The notes below the pieces were generated by a model that saw only the letters and a program-made list of their open reading frames with translations, did not search any database and was not told where the DNA came from. Source: Escherichia coli (GTDB lineage: Bacteria > Pseudomonadota > Gammaproteobacteria > Enterobacterales > Enterobacteriaceae). From it: a DNA stretch of 64,000 bases. Both the position numbers and the translations under genes were made by a program. Positions 2,935 to 9,816 of this stretch are shown here, piece after piece; position 1 is the stretch's first letter, and every line of letters begins with the position of its first letter. Location: the NCBI RefSeq assembly GCF_003334305.1, contig NZ_QOWS01000011.1, one strand, 5' to 3'.

Positions 2935-3732
2935 TTAATGAACATTCGTCGCCGAAAACGAGTCTGTATCATTAGCGTGATGCAGTCTCTGCAAAGGATC
3001 TTGTTGATAAAATTGGCAGAAACGTTGCCACAATGAAGGGAAACGAGGAGCAAAAAGTTCTGGGGCGCTAAAGAAATATTCAGAAAGTACGGCAAAACAT
3101 TCAGCAGGATCACTGGCAGCATAAGCATCGATGCTCGCCGCATTCTCGCCAACCAATTCGATTTCTTCCTGAATGTTGTTCATTGCAGCATGAAGATCGT
3201 GTTCCCAGCCAGCAACCTCACGCAACGGAATAAAGGGAACTCCGCTGGCGCGATCGCCGTTACGGGTGTCCAGCTTATGAGCGACTTCATGAATAATCAG
3301 GTTAAAACCAGAAGCATCAAAAGAATCTTGTATATCCAACCAGTTCAAAACGATAGGCCCTTGCTGCCAGCTCTGACCTGACTGAACAATACGTTGGTTA
3401 TGCACCAGACCGATATCGTCTTCCCATTCATCATCGACCACAAATGGCGCAGGATAAATTAAGACTTCATGAAAACCATCCAGCCATTCCAGTCCTAACT
3501 CCAGAACGGGCAGGCAAAATAGAAGTGCTATCCGGCAGCTTCTTAATGAATTCAGCTCAAAGCCCTGTAAAGGAACAAGCCGTTTTTGCTGTAAAAAACG
3601 TTCGGCAAGAGTGACTAATTTGCTTTGTTCCTGTTCCGTCAGACACGTTAAAAGGGGGATCGATAGTGCTTCCTGCCAGGGAAGGGCAGTTTGATGTGCT
3701 GATTCTTGTACTTTCCAGGGCCACTTAATCAT
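2935..3732 (-). CDS. mtfA: Mlc titration factor A (zinc-dependent aminopeptidase)
   Basis: 265-aa frame with HEVAHKLD zinc motif; start taken at MIKWPWK, inside the longer track ORF. Confidence 0.9.
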
Positions 3733-3825
3733 CGTTTTGCTCGCAAACTCGTCACTTGAACAAAATTGCACGGACAGGGACTGTTAAAATGCCAAATTTC
3801 CTGGCATCATGGCAACCATCTGAAC

Positions 3826-3915
3826 GGAGAGATGCCGGAGCGGCTGAACGGACCGGTCTCGAAAACCGGAGTAGGGGCAACTCTACCGGGGGTTCAAATC
3901 CCCCTCTCTCCGCCA
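3826..3915 (+). tRNA. serU: tRNA-Ser (CGA)
   Basis: 90-nt match to remembered E. coli tRNA-Ser with long variable arm and CCA end. Confidence 0.95.
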
Positions 3916-4584
3916 CTTTATCAATGACTTATCTCCCGACTTCCCGCCTTGCTTTTCCTAAACAGAACAATCGTAGAATATTCTTGAAGGGTTAGATCGT
4001 CACTGTTTTCTGTTCGATACTGTGACATTCAGCACTTGATTCGCTATGGGTCTGACAGGAAGGTTTCGAGCGAAAATCTACAGTTATTCAGTCGTTTTCT
4101 TATCGGTCACCATTATTCTTTTAGACATTGATCCTATGAAACTGCCGCAAAGTTGCTGGCGGGAACTGAAGTTGCGTAGAGAAGGGGTCAATAATTGAGC
4201 CAAAAAAGGAACGCGGCCGTCAGATTAAAGCCGCGGGACAAAGTCCATAATTTCCAAGAGTTGTTGAATTTCCCAGCTTTTTTGAAAGCCTTTGTATCAT
4301 ACTAACAAGTAAAAAAGGTTTAAATACCAAAATTAACCTATATTTCTGGTTAGCTTTACCATGACAGATGACTTGCTCCTGGAGACATTGGCGCAGCCCG
4401 TCTGTATTGGTGAGTTGTGTATTTATTGTTCGCCGTTTTCTCAGTTTTTTTCTACAGACATAATAAAAAAGACACGTCTCAAGCATGAGCGTGTCTGAGT
4501 TTGTCTTATTTATTTGTCTTGGTAAATTATTGTCGTTACTACCAGGCACTGTTCTGTTAAATAATTGAAGTCAGCGCAAAAAAA

Positions 4585-5235
4585 TCAATGAGACATCATC
4601 TCCTCGACCACTTCTTTGCTACTCAACTGATATGGATAATACGTTGGCCAGTTTTCCATTTCATTCAATAAAGACTGTTGGGTATCATTACCCATAAAAA
4701 TGTGAAAATGAGATGATTTTCGTGGTGCAATTATATGATCGCTAAATTGAATATATTTAGGGGCTTTGCTTTCAGGATCTTTACATTCGAATAAGTAACG
4801 AACGCCTTTCTTGCCTGATTTATAGGTGAGTATTTTGTATCCATCGTAATCATATTTACAGGATGTTGTTTCATTATGTCTATGGAATTCAACAATGCCG
4901 TCCTCAATGCCAATCATCTCGATATCTGTCACATAACCTTTGCGATAATAATCTTTAATTTCAGCAAATGTTTTGGTTTTATCTGCATCCGCTTTCTTCT
5001 GAAAGACGGGGTCAAGTTTGCCACTTTGCAGTAAAGGATAAACGGATTGCCAGACTCCATCCCAGTCACTGAGCGTTCGGTTTTGTACATTGGTATCATC
5101 AAAAACACCATTAGCAGCTTTTTGTTCGACCTCTGTTAAGGGGTTGCCGTGTGAGTGATGACCATGCGAAAAGGCAGGAGCGCTAACAATAAAGACGCCT
5201 AAAGCAACAGCCAGTTTATGAAGACGAATCGCCAA
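4585..5235 (-). CDS. zinT: Periplasmic zinc/cadmium-binding protein ZinT (YodA)
   Basis: 216-aa ORF, signal peptide plus HGHHSHG metal-binding motif. Confidence 0.95.
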
Positions 5236-5267: not shown

Positions 5268-5290
5268 TATAATGTTATATTGTAACATAT
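5268..5290. promoter_or_regulatory. Zur box in the zinT promoter
   Basis: Near-palindrome ATGTTATATTGTAACAT resembling the Zur consensus, just upstream of the zinT start. Confidence 0.6.
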
Positions 5291-5427
5291 GGCGAAATGC
5301 AATAACTCTTAGGAAACGAGAGCATAGTTTTCTCAGGTGTATTTTCCTATCTTATTGAAATAAAATAAATTATTCTGGTGATGAAAGGTTGATGACAAAC
5401 GAAACATAACTTGATGCGATCTGTGTG

Positions 5428-5460
5428 GGCCGGATAGGGCGCTCGCGCCGCATCCGGCCG
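5428..5460. repeat. REP (repetitive extragenic palindrome) element
   Basis: GCCGGATAGGGCGCTCGCGCCGCATCCGGC palindromic REP-type sequence between zinT and msrQ. Confidence 0.7.
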
Positions 5461-5491
5461 GGATAACGCGTACTTTGTTGGCAATATGAAG

Positions 5492-6127
5492 TTATAGAGA
5501 TAATTTGTTGTGAACCTGCTTGCGTAACTGGTTGAAAAGGGAAAGCAACTTCTTATACCGTAAGGCTAAAAGCAGTACCGCCAGCCCAGCGTAGATGAGT
5601 GGCTGCGGTGAAATAATCTTCACTGACCACAAATAATGTATTGGGGCCAGGATCGCGACAAGATAGACGAAGTTATGCAACTGTTGCCAGTGTTTGCCGA
5701 GTTTTCGCTGCATCGCCTGGGTTGAAGTGAACGCTAACGCAAGCAAAATTACCCAGCTGATAATACCTAACGTTAAATAAGGCCGGGTAATTAACTCCTT
5801 ACCTAATAACGCCAGATTATTCACGCCCAGCTCCAGCAATGCGTAACTGGTTAAATGCAGTGTCGCCCAGGCAAAGCACCATAAGCCTAACAGGCGGCGA
5901 GTGCGTATCAATAACGGCTGTTTTGCGTAGCGTGCCAGAGGTGTGATTAACAAGGTCGCCAGCAAAAATTTCAGTGCAGTGCGACCGGTAAAATGCTGAA
6001 TATCTTTCACCGGATCGGCACCCAGTCCACCGTGATTGATCGCCCAGGCCAGCCAGAGAAACGGCAACAATCCGGCAAGATGCAGGCAAACTTTCAGCCA
6101 TGTCACCTGTTTTGCTGTCAGACGCAT
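5492..6127 (-). CDS. msrQ: Methionine sulfoxide reductase haem-binding membrane subunit MsrQ (YedZ)
   Basis: 211-aa hydrophobic ORF, operon partner of msrP. Confidence 0.9.
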
Positions 6128-7138
<1,011 letters not shown>

Positions 7139-7240
7139 TCACACTTTTTTGTCGTTAGCCAGCAAGAGCCGTTTACTGTTTATCTGTCAGGGAGTGTCCT
7201 CCCTAACAGTAGCAGAGATCTGCTTTTACATATTTATGCA

Positions 7241-7654
7241 TTAACTGCCACGATAGGTTGAATACCCATATTGGCTAAGTAATAAAGGCACATGATAATG
7301 CTCGTTCACTTTATTAATATGAAATTCAACGGGGATCTCAGGGAAGAAACTTTCAAGATTTTGTTTCTTGAAATAGTCCCCGGTTTTAAATACGACACGG
7401 TAATCGCCCGTAGTTGCAGTTTGCTCGGGCCACAGTGCCTTAATTCGTCCATCCTTATCTGTTTTGGCGGTATTAAGTTGTAACCAGCCGTTATCCGCCT
7501 TCTTTTCAAGAGTGACTGTCACGTCAGCAGCGGGTTTTCCTGTTTGCTGGTTCAAAATGTGCACGCTAAGAATGTTTTGTTGTGCGGCATTAACCAAAGA
7601 AGGTAATGAAAATGCTGCCGTTGCTACCGAGAGTACTAAATAACGCTTTAACAT
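7241..7654 (-). CDS. hiuH: 5-hydroxyisourate hydrolase (transthyretin-like) HiuH (YedX)
   Basis: 137-aa ORF with signal peptide and C-terminal YRGS motif. Confidence 0.9.
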
Positions 7655-7723
7655 GTTTATATCCTTGTCATGTGAATGAGTTTTGAGGATAGCGAAAAAA
7701 CGTCCAGGGTAACCTTACAGCAG

Positions 7724-7741
7724 CATTACAATTTTGTAATG
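7724..7741. promoter_or_regulatory. HprR/CusR-type response-regulator box in the hiuH-hprR divergent promoter region
   Basis: Perfect palindrome CATTACAATTTTGTAATG. Confidence 0.6.
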
Positions 7742-7786
7742 AACCAGGCTGTTTCTATAACATATGATTTATGGCATATTATTTTC

Positions 7787-8458
7787 ATGAAGATTTTACT
7801 TATTGAAGATAATCAAAGGACCCAGGAGTGGGTAACGCAGGGGCTTTCCGAAGCGGGTTATGTCATCGATGCCGTTTCTGATGGCAGAGATGGGCTTTAT
7901 CTTGCGCTGAAGGATGATTATGCATTGATCATTCTGGATATTATGCTTCCGGGTATGGATGGCTGGCAGATCTTACAAACGTTAAGAACGGCAAAGCAAA
8001 CCCCTGTTATTTGCCTTACTGCAAGGGATTCTGTCGATGACAGAGTCAGAGGGTTGGACAGTGGAGCAAATGATTATCTGGTAAAACCTTTTTCATTTTC
8101 TGAGTTGCTGGCAAGGGTTCGGGCACAATTAAGGCAACATCACGCTTTGAATTCAACATTAGAAATCAGCGGCTTAAGAATGGACTCTGTTAGTCAAAGT
8201 GTGAGCAGGGACAATATCAGTATTACACTGACGCGCAAGGAGTTTCAGTTACTTTGGCTACTGGCCTCCAGAGCAGGCGAAATTATACCCAGAACGGTTA
8301 TTGCGAGTGAAATTTGGGGAATCAACTTTGATAGTGATACCAATACGGTGGACGTCGCCATTCGCAGGCTCCGCGCAAAAGTTGATGATCCTTTTCCTGA
8401 AAAGCTAATCGCCACAATCCGGGGGATGGGCTATTCATTCGTAGCGGTAAAAAAATAA
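7787..8458 (+). CDS. hprR: Two-component response regulator HprR (YedW)
   Basis: OmpR-family receiver and winged-helix domains; start taken at MKILLIEDN (223 aa) inside the longer track ORF. Confidence 0.9.
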   Translation: MKILLIEDNQRTQEWVTQGLSEAGYVIDAVSDGRDGLYLALKDDYALIILDIMLPGMDGWQILQTLRTAKQTPVICLTARDSVDDRVRGLDSGANDYLVKPFSFSELLARVRAQLRQHHALNSTLEISGLRMDSVSQSVSRDNISITLTRKEFQLLWLLASRAGEIIPRTVIASEIWGINFDSDTNTVDVAIRRLRAKVDDPFPEKLIATIRGMGYSFVAVKK

Positions 8459-9816
8459 TGAAAAGATTATCTATAACCGTCCGTTTAACCTTGCTTTTTA
8501 TATTGCTGCTGTCTGTTGCTGGCGCTGGAATTGTCTGGACTCTCTATAATGGCCTGGCAAGTGAGTTGAAATGGCGCGATGATACAACACTCATTAACCG
8601 GACAGCGCAGATCAAGCAGTTGTTAATTGATGGGGTAAATCCAGATACGTTACCTGTATACTTTAACCGGATGATGGATGTTAGCCAGGATATCTTGATC
8701 ATTCATGGTGATGGCATCAATAAAATTGTTAACCGGACAAATGTCAGTGATGACATGTTAAATAACATACCTGCTAGTGAGACAATCAGCGCAGCTGGCA
8801 TTTACAGAAGCATTATTAATGACACTGAGATTGATGCTTTACGAATTAATATTGATGAAGTTTCGCCATCATTAACGGTTACTGTGGCTAAATTGGCTTC
8901 AGCCAGACATAACATGCTTGAACAGTATAAAATCAATAGCATTATAATTTGCATTGTCGCCATTATACTGTGCTCAGTATTAAGTCCGCTGTTAATCCGA
9001 ACGGGGTTACGAGAGATCAAAAAGTTGAGTGGTGTAACGGAAGCGCTGAATTATAACGATAGCCGGGAGCCTGTTGAGGTTAGCGCATTACCGAGAGAAC
9101 TAAAACCTCTTGGGCAGGCGTTGAATAAAATGCATCATGCTTTAGTCAAAGATTTTGAGCGTCTAAGTCAGTTTGCTGACGATCTCGCTCATGAACTTAG
9201 AACGCCAATTAATGCATTACTGGGTCAGAATCAGGTTACGCTCAGTCAAACCAGAAGTATCGCTGAATATCAAAAAACAATTGCCGGTAACATTGAAGAG
9301 CTGGAAAATATTTCGCGGTTAACAGAGAACATACTGTTTCTTGCCAGGGCAGATAAAAACAATGTTTTGGTGAAACTGGACTCGCTTTCTCTCAATAAGG
9401 AAGTCGAAAATTTGTTGGACTATCTTGAATATCTTTCAGACGAGAAAGAGATTTGCTTTAATGTCGAGTGCAATCAGCAAATCTTTGCGGATAAAATTTT
9501 ACTGCAACGAATGTTATCGAATCTTATTGTTAATGCCATTAGATATTCACCAGAAAAATCGCGTATTCATATAACCAGTTTTCTTGATACCAACGGATCT
9601 CTTAATATTGATATCGCCAGCCCTGGAACGAAAATTAATGAGCCTGAAAAACTCTTCCGTAGATTTTGGCGGGGAGATAATTCGCGTCATTCCGTAGGTC
9701 AGGGACTAGGCCTTTCTTTAGTCAAAGCGATTGCCGAATTACATGGGGGAAGTGCTACGTATCACTATCTCAATAAGCATAATGTGTTCCGGATTACGTT
9801 GCCGCAAAGAAATTAA
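8458..9816 (+). CDS. hprS: Two-component sensor histidine kinase HprS (YedV)
   Basis: 452-aa ORF with two transmembrane segments, H-box HELRTPIN and ATPase domain; start overlaps the hprR stop. Confidence 0.9.
   Translation: MKRLSITVRLTLLFILLLSVAGAGIVWTLYNGLASELKWRDDTTLINRTAQIKQLLIDGVNPDTLPVYFNRMMDVSQDILIIHGDGINKIVNRTNVSDDMLNNIPASETISAAGIYRSIINDTEIDALRINIDEVSPSLTVTVAKLASARHNMLEQYKINSIIICIVAIILCSVLSPLLIRTGLREIKKLSGVTEALNYNDSREPVEVSALPRELKPLGQALNKMHHALVKDFERLSQFADDLAHELRTPINALLGQNQVTLSQTRSIAEYQKTIAGNIEELENISRLTENILFLARADKNNVLVKLDSLSLNKEVENLLDYLEYLSDEKEICFNVECNQQIFADKILLQRMLSNLIVNAIRYSPEKSRIHITSFLDTNGSLNIDIASPGTKINEPEKLFRRFWRGDNSRHSVGQGLGLSLVKAIAELHGGSATYHYLNKHNVFRITLPQRN

Follow-up and report, generated by a model that had tools for sequence, protein, structure and literature searches.

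The interval between the tRNA gene serU and zinT in the 64,000-nucleotide stretch of Escherichia coli DNA analyzed here (the window) raises the question of why it carries no yodB, the gene that stands between serU and zinT in K-12: whether yodB was lost from it, whether the interval is a scar or an empty form of the attachment site at serU, or whether yodB is the later arrival. The original prediction had given the K-12 order as zinT-yodB-serU, and a K-12-derived RefSeq record indeed gives mtfA, tRNA-Ser, yodB, zinT and msrQ in that order. It had also delimited a yodB-free interval of about 670 bp, which proved exact: the end of serU called by ARAGORN and the zinT open reading frame leave 669 bp between them (Table 1), and tblastn and blastn searches for yodB gave no match there. 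A 1.1-kb probe taken across the spacer is 100% identical to E. coli A7 (NZ_CP028767.1), where mtfA, tRNA-Ser and zinT follow one another with no annotated feature between tRNA-Ser and zinT, and it finds matches in 5,423 of 5,426 complete E. coli genomes. The yodB-free spacer is an ordinary strain polymorphism, already present in public genomes.

Table 1. Features of the serU-zinT region (positions are those of the window).
Feature	Position	Strand	Basis or comment
serU, tRNA-Ser(CGA), complete, 90 nt	3826-3915	+	ARAGORN; Rfam tRNA, 57 bits
serU-zinT spacer, 669 bp, non-coding	3916-4584		between convergent serU (+) and zinT (-)
Possible eroded prophage attachment arm	3916-4025		pairwise alignment to an intact serU prophage arm
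serU-proximal block, common to both alleles, 278 bp	3916-4193		about 97% identity to K-12
Second terminator-like hairpin	4200-4235	-	fold -15.4 kcal/mol, z = -1.4, not better than shuffles
Allele-specific segment, 222 bp	4363-4584		K-12 counterpart of 995 bp with yodB; breakpoints from pairwise alignment
Predicted zinT intrinsic terminator	4464-4496	-	-17.9 kcal/mol, z = -4.5, 0 of 200 shuffles
zinT (yodA), right-hand neighbor of the spacer, convergent with serU	4585-5235	-	ORF list; annotation in A7

Coding content and hairpins of the spacer

The spacer had been described as AT-rich, and its G+C content is indeed lower than that of the window (39.5% versus 49.7%), but the bias is modest, since zinT itself has 39.2%. 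The accompanying claim that it holds no credible open reading frame, the longest being a frame of 109 aa (4220-4549, minus strand), was confirmed as far as reading frames and family searches can tell. This frame is truncated or lost in two of six E. coli strains and absent in E. albertii. The spacer frames had no family match in PHROGs, and in NCBIfam they gave a single chance-level match, of the 109-aa frame (E = 0.039; 11.9 bits against a cutoff of 647 bits). Rfam returned no match in the interval besides the serU tRNA. When the 109-aa frame and two smaller ones, of 50 aa and 45 aa, were examined for coding constraint, all three failed, being broken, truncated or marked mostly by replacement changes.

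Of the hairpins said to be scattered through the interval, two were found, and only the one nearer to zinT folds better than shuffled sequences. In it, an 11-bp stem that has one bulge and ends in a 4-nt loop (4470-4496) is followed by a tract of six U residues (4464-4469); it starts 88 nt past the zinT stop codon, and its sequence is unique in the window. The three versions compared differ in what they retain. In E. albertii both arms of the stem carry changes, yet the hairpin folds (-19.7 kcal/mol, z = -4.2), and compensatory changes preserve the terminator there; the hairpin of the phylogroup-B2-type allele also folds; the K-12 allele keeps the stem and lacks the U tract. A G+C-rich stem, a short loop, a U tract just after a gene and conservation across species are the marks of intrinsic terminators, and all are present at 4464-4496, which we read as the zinT terminator, a function that is predicted from the fold.

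The second hairpin has a 7-bp G+C stem (4212-4235) followed by UUCCUUUUUU. It is identical in all six aligned E. coli strains and in K-12, where the yodB stop codon is about 250 bp upstream of it, and it falls within a segment (4194-4312) that is absent from E. albertii. A consensus scan of the interval for promoters and terminators found nothing, the loops of both hairpins exceeding the limit of that scan. The working parts of the spacer would then be minus-strand transcription stops, the zinT terminator and, about 260 nt further on, the second hairpin with its U run. Over positions 4203-4248, two phage-borne stretches resemble the window at borderline significance: one in phage vB_EcoS-683R6 (87% over 46 nt) and one in SerU-LTIIb, between its tRNA genes and its holin gene (83%).

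We consider it very improbable that the spacer conceals a small gene, whether the 50-aa frame (4046-4198), which has a hydrophobic core, the 45-aa frame (4361-4498), or an RNA from the zinT 3' untranslated region ending at the terminator. The 50-aa frame is open in five of six E. coli strains, but it is cut short in Nissle, is missing from E. albertii and differs from that of strain S1bESBLb at five of 50 residues, only two of the seven base differences being silent in our reading of the alignment. The 45-aa frame has no ATG in E. albertii and has 1-bp indels within it in two of the aligned E. coli strains. As for an RNA, the 115-nt region 3' of zinT ends with a strong hairpin and a U tract, the usual shape of regulatory RNAs derived from 3' ends, but the K-12 allele has a wholly different sequence there. 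The absence of matches in PHROGs and Rfam and the chance level of the NCBIfam match also weigh against a concealed product.

Two alleles of the spacer and their relative age

Pairwise alignment of the window with K-12 is gap-free from 3700 to 4362, at 97.4% identity, and the part of the spacer common to both comprises 447 of the 669 bp, at about 97% identity. Beyond this point K-12 has a cassette of 995 bp, made up of yodB with 122 bp and 342 bp of flank, and homology restarts exactly at the zinT stop codon. The only recognizably common element between the two alleles is a hairpin of about 29 nt; the rest of the 222 bp is no more similar to the K-12 cassette than shuffled sequences are (z = 1.2 and -0.4), and K-12 has nothing corresponding to about 190 of the 222 bp. 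With K-12 YodB as the query, tblastn matched K-12-type loci and had no hit within the window's first 10 kb, and blastn at word size 7 did not find yodB DNA in the interval. The window resembles K-12-type loci in its flanking genes, their orientation, the hairpin at 4200-4235 and the stem of the zinT hairpin, and differs from them in lacking the yodB-bearing segment and in having a U tract after the zinT hairpin. The window spacer is the yodB-free allele of a two-allele E. coli intergenic region.

Both alleles are common. The 222-bp form is present in 2,293 of the 5,426 complete E. coli genomes (42%), at 92.8-100% identity, its carriers including Nissle 1917 and other extraintestinal strains, and the K-12 yodB cassette is present in 3,114 (57%), nearly all at 98.4-100% identity and including K-12 derivatives, ATCC 8739, O157:H7 and O104:H21. 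The two genome lists, counted separately and summed without intersection, come to 5,407 of 5,426, a total in keeping with a locus of two alleles. Beside both junctions the haplotypes are only 93% identical to each other, as expected for old linked alleles. The locus provides a small, clean, two-allele intergenic example within the "bastion of polymorphism" formed by serU and asnT.

Outgroups, YodB relatives and allele diversity together favor a yodB-free ancestor with later gain of yodB, and we regard it as probable that the yodB-free form is ancestral. The direction of change is inferred here from two outgroup lineages, E. albertii and Escherichia sp. MOD1-EC7003, in a sample without E. fergusonii, E. 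marmotae, E. ruysiae and E. whittamii; a ZinT protein search for further Escherichia outgroups gave no usable clusters of intermediate identity. In E. albertii the order is msrQ-zinT-(spacer)-serU-mtfA, without yodB, and the spacer is collinear with that of the window, aligning with it through both K-12 breakpoints. The two parts of the 222 bp are similar to E. albertii at z = 4.3 and 6.7 (0 of 1,000 shuffles), and no similarity was found between the E. albertii spacer and the flanks of the K-12 cassette. The E. albertii spacer differs from that of the window in lacking the 119 bp at 4194-4312, which hold the second hairpin, and in its divergence: identity is 84% over 3916-4045 and 48-59% outside these serU-proximal 130 bp. 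MOD1-EC7003 likewise has no yodB beside zinT; there, 8 bp separate zinT from DNA corresponding to window 4061-3902, beyond which lies an island. Among 77 zinT loci from other genera, none has yodB within 4 kb of zinT. The yodB-free allele is also the more diverse one (92.8-100% identity against mostly 98.4-100% for the cassette), a difference that is partly expected because this allele is entirely non-coding.

As a separate observation, MOD1-EC7003 illustrates how plastic the spacer is across Escherichia: nearly all DNA from the zinT stop codon to window position 4061 is missing in this genome, and an island is present at serU.

The relatives of YodB point in the same direction as the outgroups in the combined argument above. 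Full-length E. coli YodB proteins form one tight cluster at about 99% identity, the next relatives are at most 77% identical, and no full-length relative was found between 99% and 77%. The two nearest relatives outside E. coli that were checked, from Citrobacter and a metagenome, are 76% identical (other matches reach 77%) and are encoded in prophages, between the lysis genes and the terminase genes, where phage cargo genes usually reside. At the DNA level these prophage genes resemble K-12 yodB within the open reading frame only, at 72-73%. To judge from these sequences, yodB has the character of an accessory gene, its closest relatives being carried in prophages. Three shorter YodB matches at 84-92% were considered as divergent orthologues and rejected, since they are copies, frameshifted or incomplete, in E. 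coli DNA of the K-12 type.

The manner of the gain is constrained by the zinT hairpin, which lies at nearly the same distance from the zinT stop codon in the window (about 87 nt), in K-12 (92 nt) and in E. albertii (93 nt). Because this hairpin is common to both alleles at near-equal distance and the DNA around it cannot be aligned between the K-12 allele and the window, a simple insertion does not explain the K-12 allele, which suggests instead that the K-12 segment was imported whole, through recombination with a diverged relative that had the same layout. In K-12-type lineages, the 222 bp beside zinT would have been swapped for the 995-bp cassette with yodB, which encodes a cytochrome b561 homologue, a replacement that would have retained the zinT hairpin and removed its U tract. 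Nothing pointed to insertion of the cassette by a transposon or by site-specific recombination either: repeat searches found no direct or inverted repeats flanking the K-12 cassette or in the corresponding place in the window. No donor was found among the zinT loci of other genera, the phage collection or the prophage yodB-like genes; the cassette flanks had no match in the 77 loci of other genera, and the sole match of the cassette in the phage collection was host flank in a prophage record.

The opposite direction of change, in which the ancestor had zinT-yodB-serU as in K-12 and the lineage of the window lost yodB, is improbable. It would accord with the presence of yodB in the majority of complete genomes, with the zinT hairpin shared by both alleles and with the location of the locus in a known recombination hotspot (PMC5521745). 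However, a simple deletion from a K-12-like ancestor cannot yield the window allele, since about 190 of its 222 bp are missing from K-12, and they are homologous to the spacer of E. albertii, which has no yodB. A deletion should have left a residue of yodB or joined K-12 flanks, and neither was found: blastn and tblastn detected no remnant of the gene, and the 222 bp are not K-12 flank sequence. Nor was yodB present at the locus in the two Escherichia outgroups or the 77 loci of other genera, and no full-length YodB orthologue of intermediate divergence came to light. The suggestion that the interval is a scar of yodB or island loss fails on the same evidence, that is, the match of the 222 bp to E. 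albertii across the breakpoints, together with the lack of a second tRNA 3' end. Moreover, sequence other than K-12-like spacer makes up just 222 of the 669 bp, the 134 bp directly after serU (3916-4049) being identical to those of island-free K-12, and the yodB-free form, probably the older of the two alleles, is itself common. With the yodB-free form as the probable ancestor, the absence of yodB here represents the normal, probably older allele and not a gene loss relative to K-12, a point of practical relevance to annotation and comparative work.

Divergence from K-12 is also seen on the far side of the spacer. The ZinT protein of the window is 96.6% identical to K-12 ZinT, which is unusual for a core gene, as compared with 99.6% for MtfA, and the spacer between zinT and msrQ falls to 87% identity to K-12 at 5285-5384. 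A REP-like element at 5428-5493 has a weak Rfam match to naRNA4 (33 bits, below threshold).

The attachment site at serU

The 3' end of serU is used by several integrating elements. A 27-kb island carrying TcpC is integrated there, near the high-pathogenicity island at asnT (PMC5521745), as is the prophage SerU-LTIIb, in a study whose table names serU-yodB as a prophage site (PMC9729726); that table was the only mention found in a whole-word search of the literature on yodB, zinT and serU. An Stx1d prophage also uses serU as its attachment site (record KU052038). Prophages and islands at serU duplicate either the last 62 nt (3854-3915) or the last 14 nt (3902-3915) of the tRNA gene, and genomes with inserts align to the spacer probe only from window position 3854 or 3902 on. 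For example, in Nissle 1917 and S1bESBLb the tRNA end is repeated over 14 bp or 62 bp, and the flank that follows the repeat is that of the window.

The tRNA gene that serves these elements is present in the window, but, in contrast to their carriers, the window has no insert, integrase or repeat at serU. No second copy of the 22-nt 3' end of serU occurs in the 64 kb with up to three mismatches allowed, the tRNA is complete, the flank continues as in K-12, and nothing is annotated up to zinT in A7. The 3' end of serU is thus an unoccupied prophage and island attachment site in the window, and on this point the original prediction, which had offered an empty variant of the site as one possibility, is borne out. 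The junction of tRNA and flank is contiguous in 3,857 of the 5,426 genomes (71%).

Other observations were made on the occupancy of this region. In the window, asnT (tRNA-Asn, 2759-2834) is occupied by the Yersinia high-pathogenicity island (1-2834) while serU is empty, and a tyrosine recombinase gene and ybtS lie to the left of asnT according to the annotation of the identical A7. In an IMG/VR contig (L178, about 5500-8900), a prophage that carries cdtB and cdtC (cytolethal distending toxin; named from translations only) ends at a 62-nt serU repeat. A second, unrelated element, with an AlpA-like regulator recognized from its translation only, adjoins this repeat, a tandem occupancy of serU.

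Phage copies of the serU flank and a possible prophage arm

Parts of the flank are also found in phage genomes. The lambda-like phages ev099, mEp332 and PhiR70_1 carry the 62-nt end of serU together with window 3916-4193, at 96-97.5% identity, and eight IMG/VR contigs also carry this serU-proximal block, ending at the same base as in the phages. In ev099 (L102, 2939-3278) and mEp332 (L101), the resulting 340-bp piece (window 3854-4193) lies between a tail-fiber assembly gene and an AraC-type gene. We rejected these copies as proof that the flank is of phage origin: ev099 has a lambda-type Int and its own lambda attP core, 75 nt from the Int stop codon, and thus integrates by the lambda system, so its serU piece is captured host DNA. 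The 340-bp piece looks like a captured junction of prophage and host, and the locus shows exchange of short pieces between tRNA-adjacent DNA and phage genomes.

A separate matter is whether the beginning of the flank preserves the end of a far older element. Intact serU prophages share a layout in which the tRNA is followed by CTATTCAAnCACTTAC, three 8-mer repeats and, about 95-115 nt from the tRNA, the stop codon of the integrase. The candidate arm in the window has degenerate repeats of the TAGAATA type at about 3968-3996, and on the minus strand at 4001-4024 it reads SNRKQ-stop where intact phages read LNRKM-stop, which makes this a possible relic, at the level of sequence, of the last integrase codons. 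The first 110 nt or so after serU are collinear with the intact arm of one such prophage (L139), their score of 22 being the best of 1,596 window segments. The serU flank of Salmonella also aligns with the window (score 16.5, with three of 1,584 controls as high) and with E. albertii (score 18.5, with one of 1,584 controls as high), and that of Klebsiella, the negative control, shows no similarity. A profile built from intact arms matches serU flanks that have no integrase, in Salmonella (E = 1.5e-6) and in an Escherichia-like genome (E = 7.7e-12). These flanks look like relic arms. The Salmonella enterica flank (L225, about 2640-2822) has three intact TTAGAATA repeats with no integrase gene after them, and the flank in the Escherichia-like genome GCA_910573545.1 (L224, about 2729-2816) matches the intact prophage arm, again with no integrase gene following.

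From these likenesses it is conceivable, though we hold it only tentatively, that the spacer, in whole or in part, is the residue of an old prophage or island at serU, with an eroded attL arm, an integrase end and possibly more phage debris. In favor of such an origin are the shared layout of the intact prophages, the existence of relic arms at serU in relatives, the ranking of the first 110 nt against the intact arm and their alignment with Salmonella, the negative Klebsiella control, and the resemblance of the hairpin at 4203-4248 to short phage stretches. The candidate agrees with relic attL arms in its position directly 3' of the tRNA and in a weak collinear likeness over 3916-4025. Unlike them, however, it is undetected by profiles: neither the E. 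coli nor the E. albertii flank was matched by two nhmmer arm profiles, at E <= 1 and E <= 10 respectively, and the E. coli flank also went undetected with a mixed-family profile. A tblastn search for an integrase remnant beside the candidate arm, with an intact integrase as the query, reached no better than E = 0.2. Furthermore, the similarity near the tRNA could reflect phage arms that match the host site they bind, and the phages with the exact 278-bp block took it from host DNA and use lambda Int and attP.

We place the prophage-arm reading below even odds: in its fullest form, the first 110 nt or so would descend from a lambdoid prophage, as its eroded arm and the final codons of its integrase, and this prophage would have integrated before the split of E. 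coli and E. albertii, perhaps before that of Salmonella, and the rest of the spacer, including the second hairpin and K-12 yodB as stranded cargo, would be phage debris. If the flank does hold such a fossil arm, the "empty" serU site of Escherichia is not virgin DNA. This is the only sense in which the word scar might apply to the interval, and it would concern all Escherichia and not this strain in particular. The surroundings of serU differ in GCA_910573545.1 (L224, 1-3000), where the 3' side of serU carries an MFS transporter gene and amn in place of zinT, which implies a rearrangement with respect to E. coli.
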